Counted from the first letter of the stretch, positions 327 through 44,490 are shown. The stretch is 64,000 nt of DNA from an uncultured Gemmatimonadaceae bacterium (GCA_964591015.1 CAZPXM010000002.1:4342-68341); one strand, 5' to 3'. Program-made: numbers and translations. Notes: generated from the sequence alone by a model not told the origin.

Positions 327-985
327 TGGGCATGCCAGACGCACGGACTGCCGCCGCCGAGACCAGCAGCGACGGGGGGCCCAGCGCGGCGGAGCGCTTC
401 CTCAACGGCATCCTGCCCGAGAATCCGACCTACCGGCAGATGCTCGGCATGTGTCCGACGCTGGCCATCACGAACGGCATGCGCTCGGCCATGACGATGG
501 CCGGGGCGGTGCTGTTCGTGCTGGTGTGCGCCAACGTCATGGTCAGCCTGATCCGCGGGCTGCTGAAGCCCCATCTGCGCATCCTGGTGTTCACGCTCAC
601 CATCGCCGCGTTCGTGACGATCGTCGACCGGCTGCTGGCGGCCTACATGTACGCGATGAGCAAGCAGCTGGGCCCCTACGTGCCGCTGATCATCGTCAAC
701 TGCATCATCATCAGCCGGTGCGAGGTGTGTGCCGCCAAGCAGTCGGTGCCGACTGCCATCGCGGACGCCGTCGGCCAGTCGCTCGGCTTCGCCCTCGGGT
801 TGGCCAGCATCGCGACCGTCCGCGAGATCCTCGGGGCGGGCACCTGGTTCGGGCTGCCGGTGCTGCCGGCGGCGTGGCCGGCCTGGGTGATCATGGTGCT
901 GCCGCCGGGCGCCTTCATCACCCTGGGGCTGTTGATGGGCGGGGTGAACTGGTTCCTGGCGAGGCGCCAGACAGCGCGGGGTTGA
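326..985 (+). CDS. rnfE: Rnf electron transport complex subunit E (polytopic membrane protein)
   Basis: The ATG at 326 overlaps the rnfG stop (TGATGG). The product is hydrophobic and matches the RnfE/NqrD family ([20 protein letters not shown] motifs). Confidence 0.85.
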
Positions 986-989
986 GGCC

Positions 990-1679
990 ATGGAATACCT
1001 GAGCTCCATCATCCTGATCGCGATCAGCGCCGCCCTGATCAACAACTTCGTCCTCTACTACTTCGTCGGCATCTGCCCGTTCCTCGGCGTCTCGCGGCGC
1101 GTGGACATGGCGTTCGGGATGGGCTGCGCGGTCACCTTCGTGATCTCGATCGCCGCCTTCCTGAGCTGGGTGCTCACGGCCTTCGTCCTGCGCCCCGGGG
1201 CACCGCTGGCCTCCTGGGTCTGGCAGCGGCTGAGTCCTGGCTCCGAGGGCGTGGCGGACCTGAGCATCCTCAACTACCTCGTCTACATCTTCGTGATCGC
1301 GTCGTCCGTCCAGTTCGTCGAGATGTACCTGCGCAAATTCTACCCGCCGCTCTACAAGTCCTTCGGCATCTATCTGCCGCTGATCACCACCAACTGCGCG
1401 ATCCTGTTCGCCTGCCTGGAGATCATGAAGCACGTTTCGGGCGTGCCGGCGGCCGAGATGTGGGATCTGGGGCGCGCGCTGGCGCTGGCATTCTTCGGCG
1501 GCGTGGGTTTCACCCTGGCCATCGTGCTGATGGCGGGCATGCGCGAGGATCTCGAGCTGTGCGACGTGCCGCGGGCGCTGCGAGGTCCCGCGATCGCCCT
1601 CATCGTGTCCGGCATCCTGGCCATGGCGTTCATGGGCTTCACGGGCGTGGACCGCAACCTCGCCGCCTTGCTGCGGTAG
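990..1679 (+). CDS. rnfA: Rnf electron transport complex subunit A
   Basis: A 229-aa polytopic membrane protein with RnfA/NqrE-like motifs ([29 protein letters not shown]), placed between rnfE and rnfB. Confidence 0.85.
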
Positions 1680-1692
1680 GGAGACGGTAGCG

Positions 1693-2601
1693 ATGATCTC
1701 TGGGGAAGTGCTGGTGGCCGGGGGAGCTATGACGGTCCTGGCCGTGGCGGTCGCCTACGTGCTGGGCTGGGCGAACAAGACCTTCCACGTCGAGGTGGAT
1801 CCGCGCGTGGAGGCCGCCGTTGCCGCTCTTCCCGGCGCCAACTGCGGGGGCTGCGGCTATGTCGGCTGCAGCGAGTACGCCGAAGCCGTCGTGCTCAAGG
1901 GGGAACAGGTGACCAAGTGCACGGTGGGCGGCGCGAGCGTGGCCACGGCACTGGCGGGCCTCATGGGCGTGGAGGTGGGCGAGTCCTGGCCCTACCGAGC
2001 CGTGGTACACTGCGGGGCCACCACCGCGCAGCGGCTGCAGCGGCGCGAGTACCGCGGCGAGCAGAGCTGCGGTGCCGCGAACATGATCAGCGGCATCCAG
2101 GGGTGCACCTACGGCTGCCTCGGGCTGGGAGACTGCGTCGCGGCCTGCAAGTTCGGCGCCATCCACGTGTGCGACGGGCTGGCCACGGTAGACTACGAGC
2201 GTTGCACGGGCTGCGGGGCGTGTGTGCGCGCGTGCCCGCGCCACATCATCACGATGGTCCCCTTCAAGGCCGAGCGCATGCTGGTGGTGAAGTGCTCGAA
2301 CAAGGACACGGGCAAGGACGTCACCTCGGTGTGCACGGTCGGCTGCATCGGTTGCGGCATCTGCGCGCGCACGAACAAGCTGCTGCAGATCGACAGCGGC
2401 CTGGCCGGCATCGACTACGACCAGTACGACCCGGCCACCGCCGATTTCGCCACGGTCCTCAGCAAGTGCCCGCGGGAGAGCCTCGTGTGGGTGGGCAAGC
2501 CGACGCCCAGGGATCTGGCGGCGGTGGCGGACGAGAAGCTGCCCGATCGCGTCGAGGCGGATTTCAAGACGACCGTCGACGACGCCGAGTGGCGCGGCTG
2601 A
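1693..2601 (+). CDS. rnfB: Rnf complex subunit B (polyferredoxin with N-terminal membrane anchor)
   Basis: An N-terminal TM helix followed by multiple Cys clusters (CGGCGYVGC, CTYGCLGLGDCVAAC, CTGCGACVRACP, CIGCGICA), which is typical of RnfB. Confidence 0.85.
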   Translation: MISGEVLVAGGAMTVLAVAVAYVLGWANKTFHVEVDPRVEAAVAALPGANCGGCGYVGCSEYAEAVVLKGEQVTKCTVGGASVATALAGLMGVEVGESWPYRAVVHCGATTAQRLQRREYRGEQSCGAANMISGIQGCTYGCLGLGDCVAACKFGAIHVCDGLATVDYERCTGCGACVRACPRHIITMVPFKAERMLVVKCSNKDTGKDVTSVCTVGCIGCGICARTNKLLQIDSGLAGIDYDQYDPATADFATVLSKCPRESLVWVGKPTPRDLAAVADEKLPDRVEADFKTTVDDAEWRG

Positions 2602-6641: not shown

Positions 6642-7796
6642 TCAGGCAGGCGCCGGCGCCGACGCCTGCCCCGGCGCCTTCCGCAGCGTCACGGTGAACG
6701 TGCTGCCCACTTCCGGTTCGCTGTGGACGGTGATCGAGCCGTCGTACAACGCCACCAGCTTCTTCACGATGGACAGCCCCAGGCCGCTGCCAAGCACGGC
6801 GGCGGTCTTCTCGTTCTTGATGCGGACGAACTCGCCGAAGAGCTTGCCGACCTCGGCGGGCGTCATGCCGATGCCGGTGTCCGCCACCGCGATCTGGACG
6901 TGCTGGTCCTGATCGGCAACGCGGACGGTCACCGAGCCGCCGCTGCGGTTGTACTTGACGGCATTGGAGATCAGGTTGTTGAGGATGATCTCGAGTTCGC
7001 CGCGGTCGGCGATGAGCTGCGCCTGCGCCGGCAGGTCGGTGGCCAGCGAGAGCTGGCGTCTGGCCGCCTCCGGCCCGGCGGTCTCGACTGCCGTGGCCAC
7101 CACCTCGCACAGGTCCACCGGCGCCAGCGTCCGCTGCTTGTTGCCCGATTCGATGCGAGTCAGGTCCAGCAAGTCGAAGATCAGCTTGCGCATGCCCTCG
7201 AGGCGCAGGAGGCTGCGGGCCACGATCGCGTCGTATCGGGCGATGTCCTCTCCCAGCGCCCTCTTCTCGATCAGGCGCAGATAGCCCTCCACGGCGGCCA
7301 GCGGCGCCTTCAGCTCGTGGCCGAGCACGCGGATGAACTCGAAGCGGATCTGCCGGCGCTCCTCGGCCAGACGCACGGCCTGGCGGTGGGCCAGCAGGTG
7401 GTGCGCCGCGCGCTGGACCGTGACGCGCAGCTCTTCGGGCGTGAACGGTTTGACCAGGAAGTCGAAGGCGCCGCGCTTGGTGGCCGTGATGACCGTCTGC
7501 AGCGAGCTGTAGGCCGAGATCATGACGGTCAGCACCTGCGCGCCGCGCTCGACGAGCCTGCTCTGCACCTCCAGCCCCGAGATGCCGGGAAGCTTGTAGT
7601 CGAGCAGGAGGATGTCGGGCAGCTCGGCCTCGGTGCGCGCGAGCGCCTCCTCGCCGCTCTCGGCCGTGGCCACCGCGAAGTCCACGGTGGCCTGCAGGTC
7701 GGGGAACTCGGCCACGTGCCGGCGCAGCGCGCGCTCGGTTCCCCGGCGCATGCCGGGCTCGTCGTCGCAGACCAGGATCCGGAGAGTCTCTGGCAT
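6642..7796 (-). CDS. Hybrid two-component protein: N-terminal receiver (REC) followed by HisKA and HATPase_c kinase core
   Basis: The receiver (MPETLRILVCDDEPG...LLLDYKLPG...KPF) precedes an H-box (HELKAPL) and N/G-boxes (NLISNAVKYN, DTGIGM, GSGLGLSIV). The start is the ATG at 7796, 24 nt after the upstream RR. Confidence 0.8.
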   Translation of the reverse strand: MPETLRILVCDDEPGMRRGTERALRRHVAEFPDLQATVDFAVATAESGEEALARTEAELPDILLLDYKLPGISGLEVQSRLVERGAQVLTVMISAYSSLQTVITATKRGAFDFLVKPFTPEELRVTVQRAAHHLLAHRQAVRLAEERRQIRFEFIRVLGHELKAPLAAVEGYLRLIEKRALGEDIARYDAIVARSLLRLEGMRKLIFDLLDLTRIESGNKQRTLAPVDLCEVVATAVETAGPEAARRQLSLATDLPAQAQLIADRGELEIILNNLISNAVKYNRSGGSVTVRVADQDQHVQIAVADTGIGMTPAEVGKLFGEFVRIKNEKTAAVLGSGLGLSIVKKLVALYDGSITVHSEPEVGSTFTVTLRKAPGQASAPAPA

Positions 7797-7819
7797 GGCC
7801 AGTCTCCGCGCGCAGGCGC

Positions 7820-8211
7820 TCAGTGCAGCAGGCGCCGGAGCTGCGCCAGCAGGGTTTCGAACCGCACCGGCTTGTCGAGGACCACATCGGCCTTGACCCA
7901 CGCTCTCTCCTCGGCGGTCACGGCATCGAAGTCGATCCCGGTCTCGCTGGCGACGGCCGTCAGCAGGATGACGGGCAGCTCCGGGCTCTGGCGCTTGAGG
8001 TGGTGCGCGAGCGCGAAGCCGGAGTCGTGCTCCTCCATCATCAGGTCGATCACGGCGGCATCCGGTCGGGCGCTCGCCGCCACCTGGCGGGCCTGCTTGT
8101 CGGAGTGCGCGGTGACCACCCGGTAGCCGGCGGCCTCGAGCTGGACCTGGAGCTCCAGCACCAGGTCCAGGTCATCGTCCACGACGAGTATCGTCTGCGC
8201 GTTCGGACTCA

Positions 8212-8212
<1 letters not shown>
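7820..8212 (-). CDS. Stand-alone response-regulator receiver domain (CheY-like, no output domain)
   Basis: A 130-aa REC (ILVVDDD...IDLMMEEHD...KP). Its start ATG overlaps the stop of the upstream HydS-like kinase (ATGA). Confidence 0.8.
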
Positions 8213-10218
<2,006 letters not shown>

Positions 10219-10259
10219 GGCCCTCCTCTTCCGGGGCGCGGCCAGCGCCCGCCGGCCCG

Positions 10260-11981
10260 CTACGCCAGCACCTGCCGCCTGGCGTAGTGGGTGTGGAGCA
10301 ACTGGTGGCTCCGCTCGCCCAGCGGCTCGCCCAGGTACTCGGCGTAGACCCGCTTGATCATCGGGTTGCTGTAGGAGGTGCGGATGCTCGCCTGCGCGTC
10401 GATCCGGTACAGGCTGGCCAGCCGGGCGCGCACATTGTCCGCGACGAGACCGATGGGCTGGCCGCCGCCGTTGACGCAGCCACCGGGGCAGGTCATCACC
10501 TCGATGAAGTGCAGGGAGCGGTGCCCCCCGCGCACCGCCTCGAGCAGGCGCCGGGCGTTGCCCAGCCCACTGACCACGGCCACGGCCAGCTCCACGTCGC
10601 CGACCGTCACGCGCGCCTCCTTGGTGCCTTCGAGACCGCGCACCGCCCGCACCTCGAGCTCGGCCATGTGCTGGCCGGTGAGCAGGTAGTGGGCAGTGCG
10701 CACCGCCGCCTCCATGACGCCGCCGCTGGCGCCGAAGATCTTGCCGGCCGTGCTGCGCCCGCCGAAGGGGCTGTCCGCCGGCTCGGGCTCCAGGCTCTTC
10801 AGGTCCAGACCGCGCCTGCGGAGGATGCGGGCCAGCTCGCGGGTGGTGAGCACCGCGTCCACGTCGGCCAGCCCAGCGGCAGCCATCTCGGGCCGTCCGG
10901 CCTCGAACTTCTTGGCGACGCATGGCATGATGGCCACGGAGAACACCTTGGCCGGAGCCAGGCCCATGCGCGTGGCGTACAGGCTCTTGATCAGCGCGCC
11001 CAGCATCTGCTGGGGGCTCTTGCAGGTCGAGAGGTTGGGGATCATGTCCGGGTAGAACTGCTCGACGAACTTGATCCATCCCGGCGAGCAGCTCGTCATC
11101 ATCGGCAGCACGCCGCCGGTGCGGAGGCGGTGGACCAGCTCCGACGCTTCCTCCATGATGGTGAGGTCGGCCGAGAACGACGTGTCGAAGACGCGGGCGA
11201 AGCCGAGCCGGCGCAGCGCCGCGGTCAACAGGCCGTCCACGTCCGTGCCCGGCTTCATGCCGAACTCCTCGCCCAGCGTCACGGAGATGCTCGGGGCATG
11301 CTGGACGACCACGTGGCGCTCAGGATCGCTCAGCGCCGCCAGCACCTCCTTGATCGAGCTCTGCTCGCGCAGGGCGCCGGTGGGGCAGACCATGATGCAC
11401 TGGCCGCAGTTGACGCACGACGACACGTTGAGCCCCCGATCAAAGGCGGTGCCGATCTTCGTGCGGCTGCCGCGGCCGATGAAATCGATGGCCGCCACGC
11501 CCTGGATCTCCTCGCAGACCCGCACGCACTTGCCGCACAGGATGCACTTCTCTGGATCGCGCACGATGGACGGACTGGACACATCCAGCCTGAGTCGGTT
11601 GCGCGTGCCGGGGTAGCGCCGCTCGCTCACGCCCTGGTTCTCGGCCAGGCTCTGCAGCGCGCAGTTGCCGCTGCGCACGCAGTACAGACAGTCGTCGGGA
11701 TGGTTGGCCAGCAGCAGCTCGACGATCGTCTTGCGGGCACGCACGGCCCGGGGCGAGTGCGTCTGGATCTTCATGCCCTCGGCCACCGGATACGCGCAGC
11801 TCGGCACCAGCGTGCGCATGCCCTCGACCTCGACCACGCACAGGCGGCACGCGCCGCTCGGCACGAGCTCCGGCATGTGGCACAGGGTCGGCACATGGAT
11901 GCCGTTGCGCCTGAGCACCTGCAGGATCGTCTCTCCCTCGTTGCCGGTCAGCTTCCGCTCGTTCACCTCGATGGTGACCAT
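10260..11981 (-). CDS. hydA: [FeFe] hydrogenase catalytic subunit (M3-type; 2Fe-2S, His-ligated 4Fe-4S, 2x 4Fe-4S, H-cluster domain), alpha subunit of HydABC
   Basis: It has the ferredoxin-like N-terminus, HPDDCLYCVRSGNC, CILCGKCVRVC and CVNCGQCIMVCP. L2 is MPCVAKKFE and L3 is EVMTCPGGCVNGGGQP. L1 reads TSCSPGW rather than the canonical TSCCPxW, which is unusual (see findings). Confidence 0.9.
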   Translation of the reverse strand: MVTIEVNERKLTGNEGETILQVLRRNGIHVPTLCHMPELVPSGACRLCVVEVEGMRTLVPSCAYPVAEGMKIQTHSPRAVRARKTIVELLLANHPDDCLYCVRSGNCALQSLAENQGVSERRYPGTRNRLRLDVSSPSIVRDPEKCILCGKCVRVCEEIQGVAAIDFIGRGSRTKIGTAFDRGLNVSSCVNCGQCIMVCPTGALREQSSIKEVLAALSDPERHVVVQHAPSISVTLGEEFGMKPGTDVDGLLTAALRRLGFARVFDTSFSADLTIMEEASELVHRLRTGGVLPMMTSCSPGWIKFVEQFYPDMIPNLSTCKSPQQMLGALIKSLYATRMGLAPAKVFSVAIMPCVAKKFEAGRPEMAAAGLADVDAVLTTRELARILRRRGLDLKSLEPEPADSPFGGRSTAGKIFGASGGVMEAAVRTAHYLLTGQHMAELEVRAVRGLEGTKEARVTVGDVELAVAVVSGLGNARRLLEAVRGGHRSLHFIEVMTCPGGCVNGGGQPIGLVADNVRARLASLYRIDAQASIRTSYSNPMIKRVYAEYLGEPLGERSHQLLHTHYARRQVLA

Positions 11982-11993
11982 TGGCCTTCCTCG

Positions 11994-13955
11994 CTAGTGG
12001 ACCAACACGGCGCCGGCCGGGCACACCGCCAGGCAGTTGCCGCACGCGATGCACTTCTCGGCGACGATGTAGTGCGGGCTCTTCGCCGCGCCCATGATGG
12101 CTTCGCTGGGGCATTGCCGGGCGCACAGGGTGCAGCCCTGGCAGCGGTCAGCGTCGATCGCGTAAATGAGCAGGTCCTTGCACGCCCGGGCGGGACAGCG
12201 ACGCTCGAACACGTGCGCTTCATACTCGTCGCGGAACCAGCGGAGGGTGCTGAGCACGGGGTTGGGCGCTGTCTGGCCCAGGCCGCACAGGCTCGTATCC
12301 TGGATGGCCCTGGCGAGCCGATCCATGGACATGACGCCCTTGAAGCGCTCGAGGGCATCGGCCTTGACCTCCTCGCGGCGGTGGCTGGTGGTGATGCGCG
12401 TGAGGATGTCGAGCATGCGGTTCGTGCCCTCGCGGCATGGAATGCACTTGCCGCAGCTCTCCCGCTGGATGAAGTCCATGAAGAACTTGGCCACGTCCAC
12501 CATGCAGGTGCTCTCGTCCATGACCACCAGTCCACCGGAACCCATCATCGCGCCCACGGTCTTCAGCGACTCGTAGTCCACCTCGATGTCCAGGTGCTGC
12601 GCCGGGATGCAGCCACCGGAGGGACCGCCGATCTGCGCCGCCTTGAAGGCCTTGCCGTCGCGGATGCCGCCGCCGATGTCGAAGACGATCCGGCGCACCG
12701 TGGTTCCCATGGCGACCTCCACCAGACCCGGGCGCGCCACCTTGCCGGACAGGGCGAATACCTTCGTGCCCTTGCTGCCTGCGGTGCCCACCGCCGCGAA
12801 CGCCTCGGCGCCGTGGCGGACCACCGTGGGGATGTTGGCCAGCGTCTCCACGTTGTTGATGATCGTCGGCTTGCCGAACAGGCCGGACACGGCCGGGAAC
12901 GGCGGCCGCGGCCGCGGCATGCCGCGCCGCCCCTCGATGCTGGCGATCAGCGCGGTCTCCTCCCCGCAGACGAATGCGCCGGCGCCCTTCTTGATGACGA
13001 ACTCCAGCTCGAAGCCGCTCTGCAGGATGTTGGTGCCGACCAGACCGTAGGCGCGCGCCTGGTCCAACGCGCGCTCCAGGCGCTCGATGGCCAGCGGGTA
13101 CTCGGCGCGGATGTAGACATACGCCTTGGTGGCGCCGATGGCGTAGGCGGCGATCGCCATGCCCTCGATGAGACGGTGGGGGTCGCCCTCGATGACCGCC
13201 CGATCCATGAAAGCGCCGGGATCGCCCTCGTCCGCATTGCAGACCAGGAATCGCTGGTGCTCGCGCTGCTGCAGGGCGAGACGCCATTTCCTGCCGGTGG
13301 GGAAACCGCCGCCGCCGCGGCCGCGCAGGCCGCTGCGCTCGACCAGGTCGCACAGCTCCTCGCGGGTGTACTCGCGCAGGGCGCGGGCCAGCGCGCGGTA
13401 GCCGTCGCGGCTCAGGTACTCCTCGATCCGGTCCGGGTCGATGAGGCCGCAGTTGGCCAGGACCCAGCGAGTCTGCGCGGCGAAGAAGGGATGCTCGTCC
13501 AGGTACGGAACCCCGTCGTGCGGGGTCAGCGCAGGATGGCGATGCTGGCCGAGCGCGGCTCCCGCAGGGATCGCTCCGGCCAGCGTCTGGTCGAGAAGAG
13601 CGGGCACCTTGTCCGCCCCGATCTCGGCGAAGCAGACCCGCGTGCGGCCCGGCAGCTGGACGTCCACCAATGGCTCGGCGGCGCACAGCCCGATGCAGCC
13701 GACCGTGACGACGTCGGCGTCGACGCGGCGGTCGGCCAGATGCTGGCGCACCCGCTGCAGAGTCTGGAGGGCGCCTGCACCCAGGCCGCAGGTGCCGGCG
13801 CCGACGTAGATGGTCGGCCGCTCCACCCGGTCGCGGCGCAGCGGCGCCAGCGCGGCACGCATCTCGTCGTGCAGGTCGGGGTCGCGGGCCAGGCCGCCGA
13901 CGAGCTCGCGGCACAATGCCGCGGCGGCCTCGGTTCTGTCACTGAGCACGGTCAT
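11994..13955 (-). CDS. hydB: NADH-binding flavoprotein subunit of the bifurcating-type hydrogenase (NuoF-like, N-terminal thioredoxin-like 2Fe-2S and C-terminal 2x[4Fe-4S])
   Basis: It has an FMN/NADH site (GRGGGGFPTGRKW), an SLBB domain, ESCGKCIPCREG, and C-terminal CQGCTLCARQCP and CIACGNCLAVCP. Confidence 0.9.
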   Translation of the reverse strand: MTVLSDRTEAAAALCRELVGGLARDPDLHDEMRAALAPLRRDRVERPTIYVGAGTCGLGAGALQTLQRVRQHLADRRVDADVVTVGCIGLCAAEPLVDVQLPGRTRVCFAEIGADKVPALLDQTLAGAIPAGAALGQHRHPALTPHDGVPYLDEHPFFAAQTRWVLANCGLIDPDRIEEYLSRDGYRALARALREYTREELCDLVERSGLRGRGGGGFPTGRKWRLALQQREHQRFLVCNADEGDPGAFMDRAVIEGDPHRLIEGMAIAAYAIGATKAYVYIRAEYPLAIERLERALDQARAYGLVGTNILQSGFELEFVIKKGAGAFVCGEETALIASIEGRRGMPRPRPPFPAVSGLFGKPTIINNVETLANIPTVVRHGAEAFAAVGTAGSKGTKVFALSGKVARPGLVEVAMGTTVRRIVFDIGGGIRDGKAFKAAQIGGPSGGCIPAQHLDIEVDYESLKTVGAMMGSGGLVVMDESTCMVDVAKFFMDFIQRESCGKCIPCREGTNRMLDILTRITTSHRREEVKADALERFKGVMSMDRLARAIQDTSLCGLGQTAPNPVLSTLRWFRDEYEAHVFERRCPARACKDLLIYAIDADRCQGCTLCARQCPSEAIMGAAKSPHYIVAEKCIACGNCLAVCPAGAVLVH

Positions 13956-14430
13956 GCTTCGCCTCCAGCTGCTTGCGCCACTGGGCCAGGACGCGCCGCA
14001 TCCGCTTCGGCGTCATCTTGGCGTGGAACTCCCCGTTGGTAGTGATGACCGGCGCCTGCCCGCAGGCACCGATGCACGCCACCACCTCCAGACTGAAATC
14101 GCCGTTCCGCGTGGTCTGGCCCGCCTTGATCTCCAGCTCGCGCTCGAGGGCGGCGAGGATCTCCGCCGAGTTGTTGACGTGGCAGGCGGTGCCGCGGCAC
14201 ACCTGGATGTGACAGCGGCCGGGCGGGGTGAAGCGGAACTGGTTGTAGAACGTCGCGACACCGAACACCTTGCTCGTCGCCAGTCCCAGGTGGGCGCCGA
14301 TCTGCGCCGCCGCCGCCTCGGAGACATACCCGTCGCGCTCCTGCACCTCCTGCAGGATCGCGACGAGCGAATCCCGCCCGGCACGCGGGTGGCGGGCGAG
14401 GATCTCCTGGATATCCGCTGGGGTTCCCAT
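13939..14430 (-). CDS. hydC: Thioredoxin-like [2Fe-2S] ferredoxin subunit (NuoE-like), gamma subunit of HydABC
   Basis: A 163-aa product with CHIQVCRGTAC...CIGACGQAP. It overlaps the hydB start by 17 nt. Confidence 0.85.
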   Translation of the reverse strand: MGTPADIQEILARHPRAGRDSLVAILQEVQERDGYVSEAAAAQIGAHLGLATSKVFGVATFYNQFRFTPPGRCHIQVCRGTACHVNNSAEILAALERELEIKAGQTTRNGDFSLEVVACIGACGQAPVITTNGEFHAKMTPKRMRRVLAQWRKQLEAKHDRAQ

Positions 14431-14443
14431 CGCTGCCCTCTCC

Positions 14444-15199
14444 TCATCCCTTTCTCTTGCGGGCGAAGTACGCGACCGTCTCGAGTCTGACTGCCAGGTC
14501 CACGTTCTCCACGTAGACCAGCGACGGCACCTTGAGGGGCACGGGCGCGAAGTTCAGGATGCCCGTGATCCCGGCGGCCACCAGCTGGTCGGCTGTCTGC
14601 TGCGCCGCCTCGGCCGGCACCGCGACGATGCCGACCGTGATCTTCTCGGCCCGGATCACCTCTTGCAGCTGCTCCACTCGATAGCAGCGGCAACCCAGCA
14701 GCACGCGGTCCATCTTCTGGGGCTCCACGTCAAAGGCGGCCACGACCTGCAGGCCGGGCCGCCGGCTGCCGCTGAAGTAGGCGAGCACAGCGCGTCCCAG
14801 ATTGCCGATGCCCACCAAGGCTGCTTGCTGTCCCTCGGGAGCATCGAGGCAGGCGGTGATGTCCGCCAGCAGCCGCCGCACCGCATACCCCGTGGACGGG
14901 TTCCCCGAGTGGCCGAGCTCCATGATGTCGCGCCGCACCTGGGCGGCCGACACGCCGGCGGCCTGCGCCAGTTCGTGCGAATGGCACCGTGACCGGCTCC
15001 CGGGGGCGGCGGGTCTTGCGCCGCACGCCGCGATGCCCGGCGCCCAGCGCGGTTCGCCGCCGCTGCGGGTGGCGGCTGCGCAGCGCGCAGCACCCATCGT
15101 GGCCGGTCTCGACAGAGACCGCAGCGTTCGCCGCCATGCTCTGCCGAACGTGGACCAGCGAGGGGATCCCTCCTGCCCCGGGGTGCGTGAAACCGGCAT
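14444..15199 (-). CDS. rex: Rex-family redox-sensing transcriptional regulator (NADH/NAD+ sensor), atypical N-terminus
   Basis: The recognition helix and wing (HELAQAAGVSAAQVRRDIMELGHSGNPSTGYAV), the Rossmann GIGNLGRAVLAY, and the C-terminal ILNFAPVPL...VENVDLAVRLETVAYF all match Rex. The first 45 aa or so do not resemble the Rex H1 helix. The start is the ATG at 15199 with an AAGGA RBS. The gene sits 13 nt upstream of hydC. Confidence 0.6.
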   Translation of the reverse strand: MPVSRTPGQEGSPRWSTFGRAWRRTLRSLSRPATMGAARCAAATRSGGEPRWAPGIAACGARPAAPGSRSRCHSHELAQAAGVSAAQVRRDIMELGHSGNPSTGYAVRRLLADITACLDAPEGQQAALVGIGNLGRAVLAYFSGSRRPGLQVVAAFDVEPQKMDRVLLGCRCYRVEQLQEVIRAEKITVGIVAVPAEAAQQTADQLVAAGITGILNFAPVPLKVPSLVYVENVDLAVRLETVAYFARKRKG

Positions 15200-15442
15200 G
15201 CGACCTATTTTCCTTGCCCTCGCGGCGCTGTGGATGGCGGTGCGTCCCACTCCTTGCAGCGTGCTGGGCGCCAGTGTCTCGGCGCGCTCTCGTCGCGTCG
15301 AGGGGCGACAGGACGCGCAGGGTTGGCCGGCAGTGCCGCCCGTCGAGCGGGTGGGACGAGGGATGGCGTGCTTCCGTGCTCCAGGCGAGGGTGCGGAGCT
15401 CGCGCTGGCGCGTTTCCGGCGTTCGGAGAGGACGAGAGCGAG

Positions 15443-17263
15443 ATGAAGGGCAATCGAGCGGCAGTGGTTCGCGAGATCTGCCAGGCGTACGGCCGCGATC
15501 GCCGCCGCATGATGGACATCGTCCGGAGTGTCCAGCAGGCGTTCGGCTGCGTGCCTGGCGATCTCATGGAGGCGATCGCGGCCGAGACCGGCACGCATCG
15601 GGTCGAGGTGGAGAGCGTGGTGTCGTTCTACGCCTTCCTCTCCGGCCGGCCGCGGGGCAAGGTGGTGATCCGCCTGTGCAGCGACGTGATCGACGAGATG
15701 ATGGGTGCGCGGCCGGTCGCGCAGGCCTTCGCGGCGGAACTGGGCATCGAACCCGGCCAGACGACGGCGGACGGCGCCATCGGTCTGGAATGGACCCCCT
15801 GCATCGGCATGTGCGATCAGGCTCCGGCCGCCATGGTCAACGACGTGATCGTCACGGAGCTGACCGGCGACAAGGCCCGCGACATCGCTCGGTCGCTCAG
15901 GAAGCACCTCCAGCCCGAGCTGCTGGTGCGCGGCTACGGCGACGGGAACAACGCCCATCCACTGGTGCAGGCGATGGTCCACAACAACATCCGCCGCCGG
16001 GGCGAGGTCGTGCTGGCGCCGATGCTCGCAGGCGAGGCCCTGCGCAAGGCCGTGGCCATGACGCCGGCGGAAGTGATCCGCGACCTGAACACCGCGCGGC
16101 TGCGCGGCCGCGGCGGGGCCGGATTCCCGACGGGCATGAAATGGAGCTTCACGCGGCGGGCAGCGGGCGAGCGCCGGTACGTGATCTGCAACGCGGACGA
16201 GGGGGAGCCCGGGACGTTCAAGGACCGGGTCATCCTCACGGAATGCCCGGATCTGGTCTTCGAGGGGATGGCCATCGGCGGCTATGCGGTGGGCGCCGCG
16301 GAGGGGATCGTGTACCTGCGCGCGGAATACGCCTACCTCCGCCGGTACCTCGAGAGCGTGCTGCAGGCCCGTCGCGAGCGCGGCCTGCTCGGCAAGGGCA
16401 TCTGCGGCAAGGCTGGTTTCGACTTCGACATCCGCATCCAGATGGGAGCCGGCGCCTACGTCTGCGGCGAGGAGACCGCTCTCATCAGCTCCTGCGAGGG
16501 CGAGCGCGGGGATCCCAGGAACCGGCCGCCGTTCCCGGCCGAGAGGGGGTACCTCGGGCAGCCCACGACCGTCAACAACGTCGAGACCTTCTGCTGCGTG
16601 GCGCGAATCCTCGAGAAGGGACCGGGATGGTTCGTGCAGATGGGGTCGAGCGGCAGCCCGGGGACCAAGCTGCTGTCCATCTCCGGCGACTGCAAGGTCC
16701 CGGGCGTGTACGAGGTGCCTTTCGGGATCCCGGTGCGCGACTTGCTGGAGATGGCCGGCGGCGGGGACGCGGCGGCGGTGCAGGTGGGCGGCCCGAGCGG
16801 GCAGATGATCGGGCCCGCCGAGTTCGGTCGCAAGATCTGCTACGACGACCTGGCGACGGGCGGTGCGCTGATGGTGTTCGGGCCCGAGCGGGACCTGCTG
16901 TGGGTCGTGGACAAGTTCATGGAGTTCTTCGTCCACGAGAGCTGCGGCTACTGCACGCCGTGCCGGGTCGGCAACGTCCTGCTGCGCAGGCGCCTGAACG
17001 AGGTGCGGCAGGGCCTCGGCACGGCCGCGGATCTGCAGTACCTGCAGGAGCTGGGCACGACGGTGAAGTCGGCTAGCCGGTGTGGTCTGGGGCAGACCTC
17101 GTCCCATCCGATCCTGAGCACGCTGAAGAACTTCCGGCATCTGTACGAGGCCCGGCTCAAGAAGGTGGACGACGGCATGGTGGCCACCTTCGACCTGCGC
17201 GCGGCGGTGGCGGCGGCAGAGAGGCTCGCAGGCCGTTCTTCAGCGCACTCACATGCTCGATAG
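15443..17263 (+). CDS. hoxF: NAD(P)-linked [NiFe] hydrogenase diaphorase subunit, fused HoxE-HoxF (NuoE-like 2Fe-2S plus NuoF-like FMN/NADH/4Fe-4S)
   Basis: The N-terminus has LCSDVIDEMMG...CIGMCDQAP (NuoE-type). It is followed by GRGGAGFPTGMKW and ESCGYCTPCRVG. The start is the ATG at 15443, after GGAGAGGACGAGAG. Confidence 0.85.
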   Translation: MKGNRAAVVREICQAYGRDRRRMMDIVRSVQQAFGCVPGDLMEAIAAETGTHRVEVESVVSFYAFLSGRPRGKVVIRLCSDVIDEMMGARPVAQAFAAELGIEPGQTTADGAIGLEWTPCIGMCDQAPAAMVNDVIVTELTGDKARDIARSLRKHLQPELLVRGYGDGNNAHPLVQAMVHNNIRRRGEVVLAPMLAGEALRKAVAMTPAEVIRDLNTARLRGRGGAGFPTGMKWSFTRRAAGERRYVICNADEGEPGTFKDRVILTECPDLVFEGMAIGGYAVGAAEGIVYLRAEYAYLRRYLESVLQARRERGLLGKGICGKAGFDFDIRIQMGAGAYVCGEETALISSCEGERGDPRNRPPFPAERGYLGQPTTVNNVETFCCVARILEKGPGWFVQMGSSGSPGTKLLSISGDCKVPGVYEVPFGIPVRDLLEMAGGGDAAAVQVGGPSGQMIGPAEFGRKICYDDLATGGALMVFGPERDLLWVVDKFMEFFVHESCGYCTPCRVGNVLLRRRLNEVRQGLGTAADLQYLQELGTTVKSASRCGLGQTSSHPILSTLKNFRHLYEARLKKVDDGMVATFDLRAAVAAAERLAGRSSAHSHAR

Positions 17264-17273
17264 GGGCCGAGCC

Positions 17274-17984
17274 ATGGGCGACAAGATCGCATTCACCATC
17301 GACGGCAAGGAGATCCAGGCAGAACCGGGCCGGACGATTCTCGTGGCGGCCGAGGAGGCGGGGGTGTACATCCCCCGGCTGTGCGCGCACCGGGAGCTGC
17401 GGCCCCACGGGAGCTGCCGGGTGTGCACCGTGCTGGTCAACGGGCGGCCCCAGGCGGCATGCACGCAGCCGGTGGCCGGCGGGGCGGTCGTCGAGAACGA
17501 CACGCCGCAGTTGCTGGAGATCCGCCGGCAGATCGTCGAGATGCTCTTCGTCGAGGGCAACCACTACTGCATGTTCTGCGAGAAGAGCGGCAACTGCGAG
17601 CTGCAGGCGCTGGCCTATCGCTTCGGCATCACGGCGCCACGGTTCCCGTACCTGTTCCCCGAGCGAGACGTGGACGCCACCCATCCCGACATCCTCATCG
17701 ACCGGAATCGCTGCGTGCTGTGCGGCAGATGCGTGCGTGCCTCGCGCGACGTGGACGGCAAGAACGTCTTCCAGTTCGTCGGCCGCGGGCCGCACAAGCG
17801 CATCGCGGTCAACGCCGAAGCCAACCTTGCGGACACCGACGCCGCGGTGACGGACAAGGCGATAGAGGTCTGCCCCGTGGGAGCGATCCTGCGCAAGCGC
17901 GAGGGTTACCGCGTGCCGGTGGGCAGACGCGCATACGACACCAAGCCGATCGGCGCGGATATCGAGCGGACCACCGCCCGCTAG
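17274..17984 (+). CDS. hoxU: [NiFe] hydrogenase diaphorase Fe-S subunit HoxU (NuoG N-terminal-like: 2Fe-2S, His-4Fe-4S, 4Fe-4S)
   Basis: Cys/His clusters: CAHRELRPHGSCRVCTV, HYCMFCEKSGNCELQ and CVLCGRCVRAS...CPVGAI. Confidence 0.85.
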   Translation: MGDKIAFTIDGKEIQAEPGRTILVAAEEAGVYIPRLCAHRELRPHGSCRVCTVLVNGRPQAACTQPVAGGAVVENDTPQLLEIRRQIVEMLFVEGNHYCMFCEKSGNCELQALAYRFGITAPRFPYLFPERDVDATHPDILIDRNRCVLCGRCVRASRDVDGKNVFQFVGRGPHKRIAVNAEANLADTDAAVTDKAIEVCPVGAILRKREGYRVPVGRRAYDTKPIGADIERTTAR

Positions 17985-18013
17985 CCGGCCGCGCAGATGA
18001 CGAGGAACGGACC

Positions 18014-18559
18014 ATGGCCAAACCGAGAGTCGCGACGACGTCGCTGGCGGGGTGCTTCGGCTGCCACATGTCGCTGCTGGACATCGACGACCGCATCCTC
18101 GAGCTGGTCGAGCTGGTCGAGTTCGACCGGTCGCCGATCGACGACATCAAACACATCGCCCAGCGCTGCGCCATCGGCCTGGTGGAGGGCGGCTGCGCCA
18201 ACGAGGAGAACGTGGCGGTGCTGCGCGAGTTCCGCGCCAACTGCGACGTGCTGGTCTCCGTCGGCGACTGTGCCATCATGGGCGGGGTCCCGGCCCTGCG
18301 GAACAACATCCCCCTGCAGGAGTGCCTCGCCGAGGCCTACCTCAAGGGCCCGACGGTGTACAATCCGAGCGGCAGGATTCCGGACAGCCCGGACATACCT
18401 CTGCTCCTGAACCGGGTCTACCCCTGCCACGAGGTGGTGAGGATCGACTACCACCTGCCCGGTTGCCCACCGCCGGCGGACGCCTTGTGGGCGGCGCTGG
18501 TGGCGCTGCTCGAGGGCAAGCCGCTGGCACTGCCATACGAACTCATCAAGTACGATTGA
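18014..18559 (+). CDS. hoxY: [NiFe] hydrogenase small subunit (group 3 type)
   Basis: Diagnostic motifs: SLAGCFGCHMSLLD, GDCAIMGG and PGCPP. The product is 182 aa. Confidence 0.85.
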   Translation: MAKPRVATTSLAGCFGCHMSLLDIDDRILELVELVEFDRSPIDDIKHIAQRCAIGLVEGGCANEENVAVLREFRANCDVLVSVGDCAIMGGVPALRNNIPLQECLAEAYLKGPTVYNPSGRIPDSPDIPLLLNRVYPCHEVVRIDYHLPGCPPPADALWAALVALLEGKPLALPYELIKYD

Positions 18560-18585
18560 TCGATCGAGCCGACAGGAGGGCCATC

Positions 18586-20031
18586 TTGACTGCGCAGGCA
18601 CAGGACAGGAAGATCGTCATCGAGCCCGTGACGCGCGTCGAAGGTCACGGCAAGGTGACGCTGGTGCTCGATGCGCAGGGCAAGGTCGAGCAGGCGCGGC
18701 TGCACATCGTCGAATTCCGCGGTTTCGAGCGTTTCATCCAGGGGCGGCCCTATTGGGAGCTGCCCGTCCTGGTGCAGCGTTTGTGCGGCATCTGCCCGGT
18801 CAGCCACCATCTGGCGGCGGCCAAGGCGGTGGACCGGCTGGTGGGAGGTGAATGCCTCACCCCGACCGCCCGCAAGATGCGTCTGCTCATGCACCACGGG
18901 CAGTTCTTCCAGTCGCACGCGCTGCACTTCTTCCATCTCTCGTCCCCCGACCTGCTGTTCGGCTTCGATGCAGACGTGGCGGTGCGCAACGTGATCGGCG
19001 TGGCGGCGAAGTACCCCGAGCTGGCGGTGCAGGGCGTGATGATGCGCCGTTTCGGCCAGGAGGTGATCAAGGCCACCGCGGGCAAGAAGATCCACGGGAC
19101 CGGCGCGATCCCGGGAGGCATCAACAAGAACCTGTCGGTGGCGGAGCGCGACGCCTTGCTGCGCGAGATGGAGCAGATGATGGTCTGGAGCCGCCAGGCG
19201 GTCCAGGTGGCCAAGGAGTACACCCTGCAGAACCTGGAGCGGCTGGCACCCTTCGGCTCCTTCGCGTCGAACCATCTGTCCATCGTCCGCAGCGACGGGG
19301 CGTACGAGATCTACGACGGCGGCCTGCGCGCCACCGACGCTTGCGGCGGCAGGATATTCGACCACGTGGACAATCAGCGGTACGTCGAGTTCATCGCCGA
19401 AGAGGTGCGCTCGTGGTCCTACATGAAGTTCCCGTTCATCAAGTCGCTGGGGCCCGAGCTGGGCTGGTATCGGGTCGGGCCGCTGGCGCGCGTCAACAAC
19501 GCCGAGTTCTTCGACACGCCGCTGGCGGAGCAGGAGCGGCAGGAGTTCGCGCGGCACGCCGGCAGACCCGCGAACATCACCATGGCCTACCACTGGGCGC
19601 GGATGATCGAGCTGCTGCACTCGTGCGAGAAGCTGCAGGAGCTGCTCCACGACCCGGATCTGCAGGGCGAGGACCTGGTGGTGAGCGGCGACCGCCGGGA
19701 GGAGGCGGTCGGTATCATCGAGGCGCCGCGCGGCACACTCTTTCATCACTATCGCATCGATGCGCACGACCAGGTGGTCATGGCGAACCTGATCGTCTCG
19801 ACCACCAGCAACAACGAACCGATGAACCGGGCAGTGCAGCAGGTCGCGGCGGAGCACCTCTCCGGGAAACCCGAGCTCACCGAGGACCTGCTCAACCACG
19901 TCGAAGTCGCGATCCGTGCCTACGACCCGTGCCTGTCGTGCGCGACGCACGCGCTGGGCCGGATGCCGCTGGTCGTGGAGCTGTACGCAGCCGACGGCAC
20001 GCTGCTGCAGCGCCGGGCGCGCGGCTGGTGA
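18586..20031 (+). CDS. hoxH: [NiFe] hydrogenase large (catalytic) subunit
   Basis: It has RVEGHG, the N-terminal Ni/Fe ligands RLCGICPVSHH, and the C-terminal DPCLSCATHA followed by a cleavable extension. The start is a TTG at 18586, preceded by AGGAGG. Confidence 0.9.
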   Translation: MTAQAQDRKIVIEPVTRVEGHGKVTLVLDAQGKVEQARLHIVEFRGFERFIQGRPYWELPVLVQRLCGICPVSHHLAAAKAVDRLVGGECLTPTARKMRLLMHHGQFFQSHALHFFHLSSPDLLFGFDADVAVRNVIGVAAKYPELAVQGVMMRRFGQEVIKATAGKKIHGTGAIPGGINKNLSVAERDALLREMEQMMVWSRQAVQVAKEYTLQNLERLAPFGSFASNHLSIVRSDGAYEIYDGGLRATDACGGRIFDHVDNQRYVEFIAEEVRSWSYMKFPFIKSLGPELGWYRVGPLARVNNAEFFDTPLAEQERQEFARHAGRPANITMAYHWARMIELLHSCEKLQELLHDPDLQGEDLVVSGDRREEAVGIIEAPRGTLFHHYRIDAHDQVVMANLIVSTTSNNEPMNRAVQQVAAEHLSGKPELTEDLLNHVEVAIRAYDPCLSCATHALGRMPLVVELYAADGTLLQRRARGW

Positions 20032-20552: not shown

Positions 20553-20908
20553 TTCTGTGCGTCGACGATGACCCGGACATCGTGGAGTACCTCAAGGTCG
20601 TGCTGGAGGCCAGCGGCTACGCGGTGAAGACGGCCGCCAGCGCCGAGGAGGCCATGCGCCGGTACCGGGAGGTGAACCCCGACGCGCTCATCGTCGACCT
20701 GATGATGGAAGAGATCGACGCAGGCACCGGCCTGGTAACCGAGCTCAAGGCCGCGGGCAACCGGGCCCCGGTGTTCATGCTCAGTTCGGTGGGCGACAAT
20801 CTCAGCCGCACCATCGACACGGCCGGGCTGGGGCTGGCGGGGGTCCTGCAGAAACCGCTCGACAGCGACGTGCTGCTGTCACTGCTGCGGGCAAGGCTCC
20901 AGCGCTGA
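20531..20908 (+). CDS. Stand-alone response-regulator receiver domain (paralogue of the 7820-8212 receiver)
   Basis: A 125-aa REC (ILCVDDD...VDLMMEEID...KP) that shares the DLMMEE motif with the other stand-alone receiver. Confidence 0.8.
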   Translation: MEDGKHVILCVDDDPDIVEYLKVVLEASGYAVKTAASAEEAMRRYREVNPDALIVDLMMEEIDAGTGLVTELKAAGNRAPVFMLSSVGDNLSRTIDTAGLGLAGVLQKPLDSDVLLSLLRARLQR

Positions 20909-22815
20909 TGCCCGGCAACCACGGCGGGATTGCCGGTGGGCCCGGCACCGGCACGGCGGCGGCAATCGAGGAGCCGACCTCCTGCGCCTGGCCAGGACTG
21001 ATTCCCCTGGAGCGCGAGCTGCGGGCCCGGCTGGCATGGTTCGTGCGGCTGCGCTGGGCCGCGGCCGCGGGTATCGCCCTCTGGGCGTGGGGGACGGCCC
21101 GGGCGGCCGCGGGTCAGCTCGCCGCGGGACCGATGTACGCGATCGCCGCGGCGGTGGCCGTGTACAACGTCGCCTTTCTCTTCGCGACGCGCCGGGTCGC
21201 CGGCCTCGGCCCCGGCAGCCGTGCCTATCGCCGCGTCATCTACGCGCAGATGGGCCTGGACTGGGTCGCCCTGGCCGGCCTCGTGCACTACGCCGGCGGC
21301 ATCCAGAGCCCGGTTCCGCTCGCCTTCACCTTCCACGTGATCATCGGCGCGATCCTCCTCTCGCGCGCTGCCTGCTACGTGCAGGCGGGAGCGGCGGCGG
21401 TGATGCTCGGCTTGCTGGTGGGCGTCGAACGTCTGGGATGGTGGCCGCCGGTGCAGGCCGACGTGCTGGCGGGTTCGGGGCCCACCTCGGCTGCCGCCTG
21501 CCTGTTCCGCTGGGCCGTGCTGGCCGGTTTCTTCGCCGTCGTCGCCTATCTCACCACTTCGATCACGGTGCCGGTGCGCCGGAACGAGGAGGCGCTGTTC
21601 GCGTCCGAGCGCGCCCTGGAGCGCTCCTACCGGGAGATGGAGGCGCTGTACGAGGTGGGGCGGGCGGTGAATGCGACGCTGGAACTCGACCAGGTGCTGG
21701 GCAAGATCGCGGAGAAAGGAGCCCAGCTCCTGGGCGTGAAGGCCTGTTCGATCCGGCTGCTCGAAGAGGATGGGCAGCACCTCCGGATCGGTGCCGCGTA
21801 CGGGCTCAGCGAACGCTACCTGGCCAAGGGACGCGTCGCCGTGGACCGCAGCGGGATCGATGCCGAGGCACTGCGCGGCAGCACGGTCCAGATCCGCGAC
21901 GCCGCGCGCGATCCACGCTTTCAGTATGCCCGCGAGGCGCAGGAGGAAGGGTTGCGGGCCGTGCTGTGCGTGCCGCTGCAGGCCAAGGGACGAGCCATGG
22001 GCTGCATGCGCGTGTATGCGGCCGAGGAGCGCGACTTCACGCGCAGCGAGGCCAACTTGCTGCGCAACCTGGCCAACCTGGGTGCGGCCGCGATCGAGAA
22101 CGCGCGCGCCTACGAGGAGCTGCGGGCCCTGAGCGAGGAACGGGCCTGGTTCGCGCGGGTGACCCATCATCAGTTGCGGGCGCCCCTGGCGGCGGTCCAG
22201 AGCATGCTGGAGGGGCTGCGCTATGCCGGACCGCTGACGCCCAAGCAGGCGGAGTTCGTCGAGCGCTGCCGGCGGCGCGTCGACGAGCTGCTCTGGATGG
22301 TCCGCGATCTTCTGGAGCTGGCCGCGGCGCAGCGGCCGCTGGCGGGGCGCAGCGCGGTGCCCGTCCGCCTGGCCGAGTGCCTGGCCGGCGCGCTGGCCAC
22401 GGCCATGGCGCGGGCGGACAGCAAGCAGATCGCCCTCGACGTCGCGCTGCCCGAAGGGGCGGCGGCGATGGCCGAGGCGCGCGACGTCGAGCTGATCTTC
22501 AGCAACCTGCTGGACAACGCCATCAAGTACACGCCGGCGGGGGGAAGAGTGCGGTTCGCGGTCCACCGCGAGGAGCACGAACTGGTGGCCTCGGTGGAGG
22601 ATACGGGCATCGGCATCGCCAGCGCCGACCGGGAGCGGGTCTTCCGGGGCTTCTTCAGGACGGCGGCTGCCAGGGCTACCGGGGAGGCCGGAACCGGCAT
22701 GGGGCTGTCCATCGTGGCGCGCCTGGTGGAGCGCTGGGGAGGGCACATCGAGCTGGACAGCGAGCCTGGCAGAGGCAGCCGCTTCACGGTACGACTGCCC
22801 GCTGCTGGCCCGTGA
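20908..22815 (+). CDS. Membrane sensor histidine kinase with polytopic N-terminal domain, GAF domain, HisKA and HATPase_c
   Basis: About six hydrophobic segments at the N-terminus are followed by a GAF-like region and an H-box (THHQLRAPL). The N/G-boxes are NLLDNAIKYT, DTGIGI and GTGMGLSIV. The ATG overlaps the upstream receiver stop. Confidence 0.75.
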   Translation: MPGNHGGIAGGPGTGTAAAIEEPTSCAWPGLIPLERELRARLAWFVRLRWAAAAGIALWAWGTARAAAGQLAAGPMYAIAAAVAVYNVAFLFATRRVAGLGPGSRAYRRVIYAQMGLDWVALAGLVHYAGGIQSPVPLAFTFHVIIGAILLSRAACYVQAGAAAVMLGLLVGVERLGWWPPVQADVLAGSGPTSAAACLFRWAVLAGFFAVVAYLTTSITVPVRRNEEALFASERALERSYREMEALYEVGRAVNATLELDQVLGKIAEKGAQLLGVKACSIRLLEEDGQHLRIGAAYGLSERYLAKGRVAVDRSGIDAEALRGSTVQIRDAARDPRFQYAREAQEEGLRAVLCVPLQAKGRAMGCMRVYAAEERDFTRSEANLLRNLANLGAAAIENARAYEELRALSEERAWFARVTHHQLRAPLAAVQSMLEGLRYAGPLTPKQAEFVERCRRRVDELLWMVRDLLELAAAQRPLAGRSAVPVRLAECLAGALATAMARADSKQIALDVALPEGAAAMAEARDVELIFSNLLDNAIKYTPAGGRVRFAVHREEHELVASVEDTGIGIASADRERVFRGFFRTAAARATGEAGTGMGLSIVARLVERWGGHIELDSEPGRGSRFTVRLPAAGP

Positions 22816-25147: not shown

Positions 25148-25165
25148 CCCGCGAGGAGACTGCGC

Positions 25166-25456
25166 ATGTGCCTGGCGGTGCCTGGGAGACTGGTGGAGAT
25201 CCGCGCGAGCGACGACCCCATGGGCCGGTCCGGCAAGGTGAGTTTCGGCGGCGTGCTCAAGGAGGTCAGCCTGGCCTATCTGCCGGAGGCGCGCGTCGGC
25301 GACTACGTGACCGTGCACGTGGGCCTCGCGCTCAGCATCGTCGACCCCGAGGATGCTGCCCTGGTGTTCGCGCTTCTCCGGGAAGCCGGCGAGGCGTCGC
25401 CGCCTGCTGAAGCTGGCGCGGCTGGCGCGGACAGCGACGAAGGCGCGCGAGGGTGA
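25166..25456 (+). CDS. hypC: Hydrogenase maturation factor HypC (HupF/HypC family)
   Basis: The N-terminal [12 protein letters not shown] is the conserved MC(L/I)(A/G)(I/V)P start. Size is 96 aa. Confidence 0.8.
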
Positions 25457-37901: not shown

Positions 37902-37923
37902 CGATCCCAGCGTGGGACGAGCT

Positions 37924-42035: not shown

Positions 42036-42046
42036 GGGCGGACCGA

Positions 42047-44467: not shown

Positions 44468-44490
44468 CAGCCTAACTGGGGGATGGATAC

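Follow-up and report, generated by a model that had tools for sequence, protein, structure and literature searches.

A serine at the cubane-ligand position of a HydABC-type [FeFe] hydrogenase as the ordinary state of a widespread natural variant

Among the [FeFe] hydrogenases of group A, the L1 motif of the catalytic subunit typically reads TSCCPxW, with the first cysteine serving as the proton relay and the second as a ligand of the cubane [4Fe-4S]H subcluster of the H-cluster. An enzyme departing from this pattern is the HydA1 subunit of Acetobacterium woodii, in which Ser301 replaces the cubane ligand and whose HydABC complex was active upon purification (Katsyv et al., 2023; PMC10021017). 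The same study, which yielded an anaerobic cryo-electron microscopy map at 3.4 Å, reported that Ser301 was without apparent influence on the Fourier-transform infrared (FTIR) signatures of the H-cluster, and that the activities were similar to those of the cysteine-bearing enzyme of Thermoanaerobacter kivui. Earlier, the motif TSCSPGW had been noted in the HydA of Melainabacteria, where it was contrasted with TSCCPAW (Di Rienzi et al., 2013), and a serine at the L1 ligand position is put at "about 20%" of HydA sequences in the passage of Kertess et al. (2017; PMC5855289) that cites Winkler 2013. The cysteine-to-serine ligand variant is, in short, known from sequences since at least 2013 and in a solved, active enzyme since 2023, while our literature search on the terms C300S, Ser301 and S301 themselves returned no relevant match. 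Here we describe a hydA gene with this exchange, encoded on a stretch of 64,000 nucleotides ('the window') from an uncultured Gemmatimonadaceae bacterium (GCA_964591015.1 CAZPXM010000002.1:4342-68341). We find nothing exceptional in the serine in question, Ser299: it is what a large and previously recognized natural variant ordinarily has, and an active member of that variant has a solved structure. The gene and its H-cluster-binding motifs, in coordinates counted from the first letter of the window, are as follows:

10260..11981, minus strand: hydA, the catalytic subunit of a HydABC-type [FeFe] hydrogenase (573 amino acids; Pfam, NCBIfam and PDB matches), with an N-terminal 2Fe-2S domain, a NuoG-like 4Fe-4S domain, a 2x[4Fe-4S] domain, the H-domain and a small-subunit-like C-terminus
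11076..11102, minus strand: the L1 (P1) motif MMTSCSPGW, read from the codons ATG ATG ACG AGC TGC TCG CCG GGA TGG
10902..10928, minus strand: the L2 (P2) motif MPCVAKKFE, with the cubane ligand Cys354 and with Lys357
10455..10502, minus strand: the L3 (P3) motif EVMTCPGGCVNGGGQP, with Cys498 and Cys502 as ligands of the H-cluster

The translation of this minus-strand open reading frame (ORF) contains GGVLPMMTSCSPGWIKF. Its L1 codons lie at 11102-11100 (M294), 11099-11097 (M295), 11096-11094 (T296), 11093-11091 (S297), 11090-11088 (C298), 11087-11085 (S299, TCG), 11084-11082 (P300), 11081-11079 (G301) and 11078-11076 (W302). A previous, sequence-only reading of the window had quoted the L1 sequence correctly, with coordinates (11071-11100) that were a few bases off from the true 11102-11076 on the minus strand; it had also called L2 and L3 canonical, which agrees with our finding of MPCVAKKFE (C354) and of L3 (C498/C502) in the translation. 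The H-domain has five cysteines only, at positions 298, 320, 354, 498 and 502, and the residue preceding the first L3 cysteine is Thr497, which is typical of the clade to which this protein belongs, as opposed to the alanine found in most TSCCP enzymes. By its domains and family-model scores the protein belongs to group A: it combines the H-domain (PF02906, Fe_hyd_lg_C, 2.2e-93) with the small-subunit-like C-terminus (PF02256, Fe_hyd_SSU, 3.6e-21) and with further domains matching PF13510 (Fer2_4), PF10588 (NADH-G_4Fe-4S_3) and PF22117 (Fer4_Nqo3), and it exceeds the cutoffs of the curated models NF040763 ('NADH-dependent [FeFe] hydrogenase, group A6'; 821 bits against 765) and TIGR02512 ([FeFe] hydrogenase group A; 510 bits against 406). 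Its L2 and L3 conform to the group A patterns MPCxxKxxE and ExMxCxxGCxxG, with MPCVAKKFE and EVMTCPGGCVNG, respectively. L1 departs from TSCCPxW, reading TSCSPGW with the relay Cys298 kept; since this is a documented natural variant, found in about 20% of sequences and in A. woodii HydA1, it is no argument against membership in group A.

In terms of solved structures, full-length matches were obtained to HydA1 of T. kivui, which is the closest (8a6t_A, E 3e-179; PDB 8A6T/8BEW), to that of A. woodii (7q4v_A, E 2.9e-174; PDB 7Q4V, 7Q4W and 8A5E), and to CpI of Clostridium pasteurianum, the reference group A enzyme (E ~1e-135; PDB 3C8Y and 4XDC). Matches of ~1e-175 to solved structures already fix the fold of HydA. 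The HMMER alignments to all three are gap-free across the block spanning L1 and L2 (approximately query residues 206-366), and equate Ser299 with Cys300 of CpI, Cys299 of T. kivui and Ser301 of A. woodii, i.e. the position of the cubane [4Fe-4S]H ligand, and Cys298 with the proton relay Cys299 of CpI. No local indel that would restore a cysteine to the ligand position was found in these alignments, and the alignment check that the sequence-only reading had itself proposed thus bears out its central claim of a retained relay cysteine followed by a cubane-ligand cysteine turned serine. The equivalents of the CpI residues P231, S232, E279, E282, R286, S319, P324, Q325, M353, K358 and M497 are all kept; throughout the H-cluster environment, the proton pathway and the second sphere, HydA matches CpI everywhere except C300. 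Across 11 tabulated columns (296-300, 302, 318, 320, 354, 498 and 502) its signature is TSCSPWSCCCC, which places it in the subclass with serine at the CpI-C300 column, no indel, and the relay and the three other ligand cysteines kept. Cys320 is common to the window HydA and A. woodii, with alanine in CpI and T. kivui; we considered it as a compensating or alternative ligand and rejected it, as a cysteine occupies the same column in 50 of 90 TSCCP families as well and so is not specific to the serine class.

Among these solved enzymes, A. woodii HydA1 resembles the window protein in its domain architecture, in TSCSPGW, in the cysteine equivalent to 320 and in its HydB and HydC partners. It differs in lineage, the closest relatives of the window HydA coming from metagenome-assembled genomes (MAGs) of Hydrogenedentota, Planctomycetota and Acidobacteriota, and in L3, where it has ELMACPGGC, with alanine, against EVMTCPGGC, with threonine, in the window HydA. 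T. kivui HydA1 shares the architecture and belongs to a bifurcating HydABC, but has the canonical TSCCP with Cys299 as the ligand. CpI shares the fold family of the H-domain and F-domain and, unlike the window HydA, has TSCCPGW with Cys300; it is a monomeric, ferredoxin-dependent enzyme.

The breadth of the serine state emerges from three sets of homologs. First, in the 120 best-scoring clusters at 90% identity, which are 68-100% identical to HydA, the ligand column holds serine in 117 (114 TSCSP, 2 SSCSP and 1 TSCSS); the three exceptions, with TSCCP, are 92-98% identical to one another and hence represent a single lineage. Second, across 80 species-representative genomes, including Hydrogenedentota, Planctomycetota, Acidobacteriota, Marinimicrobia, Latescibacterota, Lentisphaerota, Elusimicrobia and others, serine was found in 78, spanning more than 10 phyla (76 TSCSP and 2 TTCSP), with one TSCCP and one genome without a pattern match making up the rest. 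The serine codons in these 78 are TCG (52), TCT (10), TCC (7), TCA (5), AGC (3) and AGT (1), and the use of all six, from both codon families, indicates synonymous turnover of the codon while the serine in the protein was maintained. The nearest of these genomic relatives, from Hydrogenedentota MAGs, are ~72% identical to the window HydA. Much closer is a separately assembled Joint Genome Institute (JGI) metagenome contig, L081 (sample 3300022556), with 99.9% DNA identity over 6380 bp in a blastn comparison, interrupted by one indel, which encodes an identical HydA protein with the same serine codon. Third, in the wider family, we used a profile-anchored alignment of 150 top-ranking representatives of HydA clusters at 50% identity, because motif counts by regular expression missed variants, and recovered 28 Cys-Ser as against 90 Cys-Cys stretches. 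The Cys-Ser share, roughly one in five 50%-identity families, agrees with the published figure of "about 20%". A neighbor-joining tree with Fitch parsimony suggests at least 16 switches between cysteine and serine, a count that is indicative only, given a rough tree from BLOSUM distances with a midpoint root; on it the partner of A. woodii is a TSCSP family. The homolog search for TSCSP that the sequence-only reading had called for thus gives no support to the rarity it had implied: serine is the rule in this clade, accounts for about 20% of HydA at large, and is shared with A. woodii HydA1.

The same alignment shows variation in the relay column as well. At position 298, a residue other than cysteine, with the ligand cysteine kept, is seen in many close HydA families (P0122-P0270), namely serine in 8, phenylalanine in 4, alanine, asparagine and tryptophan in 2 each, and histidine, glycine, aspartate, glutamate, glutamine and leucine as single cases, implying that relay-less relatives are common among multi-domain HydA-like proteins. 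The representative search also recovered a predicted protein of 4122 residues (P0121) with 7 HydA-matching stretches (2082 bits, 45% identity), which is either a giant protein with multiple H-domains or an artifact of gene calling or concatenation; its regular-expression match, TSEGP, indicates at least one repeat in which both L1 cysteines are missing.

We consider it very probable, from homology and gene context, that HydA is the functional catalytic subunit of a HydABC-type hydrogenase, NADH- and ferredoxin-linked, with flavin-based bifurcation or confurcation, within this multi-phylum clade of natural serine enzymes. The genes that accompany it are the following:

11994..13955, minus strand: hydB, a NuoF-like subunit for flavin mononucleotide (FMN) and NAD(H), extended at its N-terminus and carrying a 2x[4Fe-4S] ferredoxin domain at its C-terminus
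13939..14430, minus strand: hydC, a NuoE-like, thioredoxin-like [2Fe-2S] subunit (PF01257, 4.7e-48)
14447..15100, minus strand: rex, heading the cassette, for a transcriptional repressor that senses redox state (NADH/NAD+)
8212..10218, minus strand: a hydS-like sensory paralog (tblastn paralog match, Pfam, and PDB matches to kinases and HydA)
7820..8200, minus strand: a stand-alone response-regulator receiver domain (PF00072, 1.5e-16)

The genes hydC, hydB and hydA are contiguous and co-oriented, with an overlap of 17 nt between hydC and hydB. HydB matches PF01512, PF10589 and, at residues 600-650, two Fer4 domains; its residues 46-650, with the C-terminal 2x[4Fe-4S] part among them, align to A. 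woodii HydB (3.4e-210), and it is also a near full-length match to the T. kivui HydB and the Tm HydB. The best PDB match of HydC is that of T. kivui (3.2e-37). The adjoining NuoF-like HydB and NuoE-like HydC constitute the HydABC (Bfu-type) architecture, and the partners which had previously been described as intact are indeed both present upstream of hydA and match subunits of the bifurcating type. The identification of rex is based on NCBIfam Rex models (up to 2.1e-51), the Pfam domains CoA_binding and Put_DNA-bind_N, and a 217-amino-acid gene call in L081. Pointers to the coupling of this HydABC differ slightly, as the NCBIfam name says 'NADH-dependent' while the architecture of HydB is of the bifurcating type.

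The gene immediately downstream of hydA starts with an ATG at 10218 preceded by AGGAGG, and encodes a 2x[4Fe-4S] domain, an H-domain, a 4-Cys FeS domain, HisKA and HATPase_c, in that order (PF02906 at 9.3e-44, PF04060, PF00512 and PF02518). Its L1, 'ATTCPAV', is devoid of the relay cysteine, whereas L2 and L3 read 'GPCLAKRRE' and 'EVLCCDGCIMGAG'. With the relay cysteine lost and a signaling domain fused, this is a genuine histidine-kinase-linked sensory hydrogenase, resembling the group C/HydS [FeFe] hydrogenases in its relay-less H-domain, extra 4-Cys FeS domain and signaling output; the adjacent sensory paralog that had been proposed is thus real and, moreover, conserved in this location. 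The receiver protein at 7820-8200 is likely to work with the HydS kinase, and a hybrid receiver-kinase follows (6642-8171, minus strand). Most of the 80 genomes show the order rex-hydC-hydB-hydA-hydS (kinase)-response regulator, which is conserved in more than 10 phyla. HydB was counted in 78 of the 80 loci, the response regulator in 75, the HydS H-domain in 68, the kinase in 66, HydC in 65 and Rex in 60, with many loci cut by contig ends. Hence, the window locus is a typical copy of a widespread rex-hydCBA-hydS-response regulator cassette, inside which a very large and phylogenetically broad clade carries the serine almost universally.

By homology to A. woodii HydABC, the [4Fe-4S]H subcluster would be held by Cys354, Cys498 and Cys502, with Ser299 at the fourth ligand position, probably ligating through its oxygen. 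Cys298 would relay protons to the bridging amine, with Glu278, Ser318, Glu281 and Arg285 as their predicted route, and electrons would exit via the accessory clusters to the FMN of HydB in a presumably bifurcating enzyme. Expression is probably controlled by Rex, in response to the NADH/NAD+ ratio, and by the HydS-histidine kinase/response-regulator pair, in response to H2.

Several observations weigh against this functional reading. The same cysteine-to-serine exchange has been engineered in HydA1 of Chlamydomonas (CrHydA1), where the L1 ligand is C115 in the numbering of the expressed protein (C170 of the precursor) and the neighboring C114 is the relay. In its C115S, C115A and C115D variants, which were pale, cubane occupancy fell strongly, the [2Fe] subsite was not taken up and activity was <1 µmol H2 per min per mg, a deleterious effect of the L1 ligand exchange that the authors themselves called surprising (Kertess et al., 2017; PMC5855289). 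C115S having lost its activity altogether and its cubane for the most part, tolerance of serine is not universal. The numbering needs care here, as C115/C170/C362/C366 of the expressed protein correspond to C170/C225/C417/C421 of the precursor: we considered the active 'C170S' of that study as the engineered counterpart of the natural enzymes and rejected it, since by this cross-check their C170 is the L2 cysteine. Further, at 3.4 Å the Fe-O(Ser) bond in the A. woodii structure is modeled rather than proven. Finally, the maturase genes hydE, hydF and hydG were not found among the window ORFs scanned, and they are probably encoded elsewhere in the genome.

Since the same exchange is natural here but destroys the cluster in CrHydA1, and the engineered C115S variant is inactive while the natural serine enzyme of A. 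woodii is functional, tolerance of serine at the L1 ligand position must depend on context. The variant itself carries little weight as a discovery, having been already recorded both in sequences and in a solved, active enzyme, and annotators should not flag TSCSP-bearing hydA genes as defective. Rather, the remaining interest lies in this context dependence, for the dissection of which the clade offers natural serine/cysteine pairs in the form of its TSCSPGW and TSCCPAW lineages.

It is possible, and we offer this tentatively, that the serine represents adaptive tuning, wherein the oxygen donor would shift the potential of [4Fe-4S]H or the catalytic bias for confurcation of NADH and ferredoxin, and Gly301, a residue other than phenylalanine at 295 and Thr497 would have co-evolved to stabilize it. 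The strong conservation of the serine across phyla, with synonymous turnover involving both codon families, is consistent with this proposal, as are the failure of the exchange in CrHydA1 and the contrast between TSCSPGW and TSCCPAW drawn by Di Rienzi et al. (2013). The second position after the serine points the same way: it is glycine in all 114 clade proteins matching T[ST]CSP.W and alanine (TSCCPAW) in the three cysteine revertants (P0035, P0051 and P0075), thereby coupling residues 299 and 301 (window positions 11079-11087). A threonine precedes the first L3 cysteine in nearly all of the 114 serine-clade proteins. At the level of families, serine is accompanied by an enrichment of G301 (23/28 as against 35/90), of non-phenylalanine residues at 295 and of non-alanine residues at 497 (p ~1e-4), the p-values being borderline after multiple testing and uncorrected for phylogeny. 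Against tuning, the serine had no apparent effect on the FTIR signatures in A. woodii, whose activity was similar to that of the cysteine-bearing T. kivui enzyme (Katsyv et al., 2023), and the at least 16 Fitch steps on the rough tree have a near-neutral look. Further, the three revertants being a single lineage, the glycine/alanine coupling counts as just one evolutionary event. We regard as doubtful the proposal that the serine is a selected, context-dependent oxygen ligand, whose co-evolved surroundings (Gly301, non-Phe295 and Thr497) both stabilize the cubane and tune the potential or bias of the H-cluster for H2 metabolism coupled to NADH and ferredoxin; were it true, it would explain the loss of the cluster in CrHydA1 and provide an engineering rule for serine-ligated H-clusters.

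A different arrangement at the active site, with Cys298 ligating the cubane and Ser299 being no ligand at all, would recall a suggestion made for the C115A variant of CrHydA1, in which Cys114 may take the place of the ligand (Kertess et al., 2017; PMC5855289), and the 3.4 Å map of the A. woodii enzyme cannot rigorously tell the two apart. We nevertheless deem such a swap of register very improbable, as there is no indel around L1 and Ser301 was modeled at the ligand site by the authors of the A. woodii structure. Loss of the relay cysteine is expected to cripple catalysis. Such a loss is at odds with the active A. woodii enzyme and its canonical FTIR states, including protonated ones.

Returning to the functional reading with Ser299 at the ligand position, the sequence-only reading had also raised the alternative of an inactive or regulatory HydA, in line with the absence of one canonical ligand, the inactivity of CrHydA1 C115S and the dedicated sensory paralog adjoining hydA. 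This is very unlikely: the motif is shared by the A. woodii enzyme, which is highly active in electron bifurcation; all other catalytic residues are kept, including the relay cysteine that is typically lost in sensory hydrogenases; complete HydB and HydC are co-encoded; and the motif is kept in relatives with a group A annotation that number in the thousands. Unlike the sensory group C and HydS-like enzymes, HydA retains Cys298, has no signaling domain and scores above the group A cutoffs. An error of sequencing or assembly at codon 299, conceivable only a priori, has a negligible probability given the serine in 117 of 120 homologs and 78 of 80 genomes and the same codon in the independently assembled, 99.9% identical L081, so that the earlier judgment against such an error stands, even as the argument then offered, that two substitutions separate the codons, is of no weight for an ancient, clade-wide residue using six serine codons.

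Beyond the cassette, the window has a G+C content of 70.6%, which results in very long spurious overlapping ORFs, such as one of 955 amino acids at 8212-11079 that overlaps hydA in another frame; genes were accordingly chosen by third-position GC and domain matches. At 37837-47139 (plus strand) are large ORFs of ~700-900 amino acids each, two of which have C-terminal FlgD_ig-like domains as the only Pfam matches in this group. Divergent from rex-hydCBA, at 15191-20031 (plus strand), is a Hox-type NAD-linked [NiFe] hydrogenase, followed by further genes:

15191-17263, plus strand: a HoxE-HoxF fusion
17253-17984, plus strand: a HoxU-like gene
ending at 18559, plus strand: the [NiFe] small subunit, with the large subunit within 18052-20031
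after the Hox-type genes: a receiver protein and then a GAF-histidine kinase (20908-22815)
22835-27611, plus strand: hypF, hypC, hypD and hypE

The region is thus an island of hydrogen metabolism in which an [FeFe] and a [NiFe] hydrogenase, both NAD-linked, stand back to back. At the start of the window, at 948-2601 (plus strand), there are RnfA/E-like and RnfB-like genes, coding for subunits of a ferredoxin:NAD+ oxidoreductase, in keeping with an economy of ferredoxin and NADH around HydABC.

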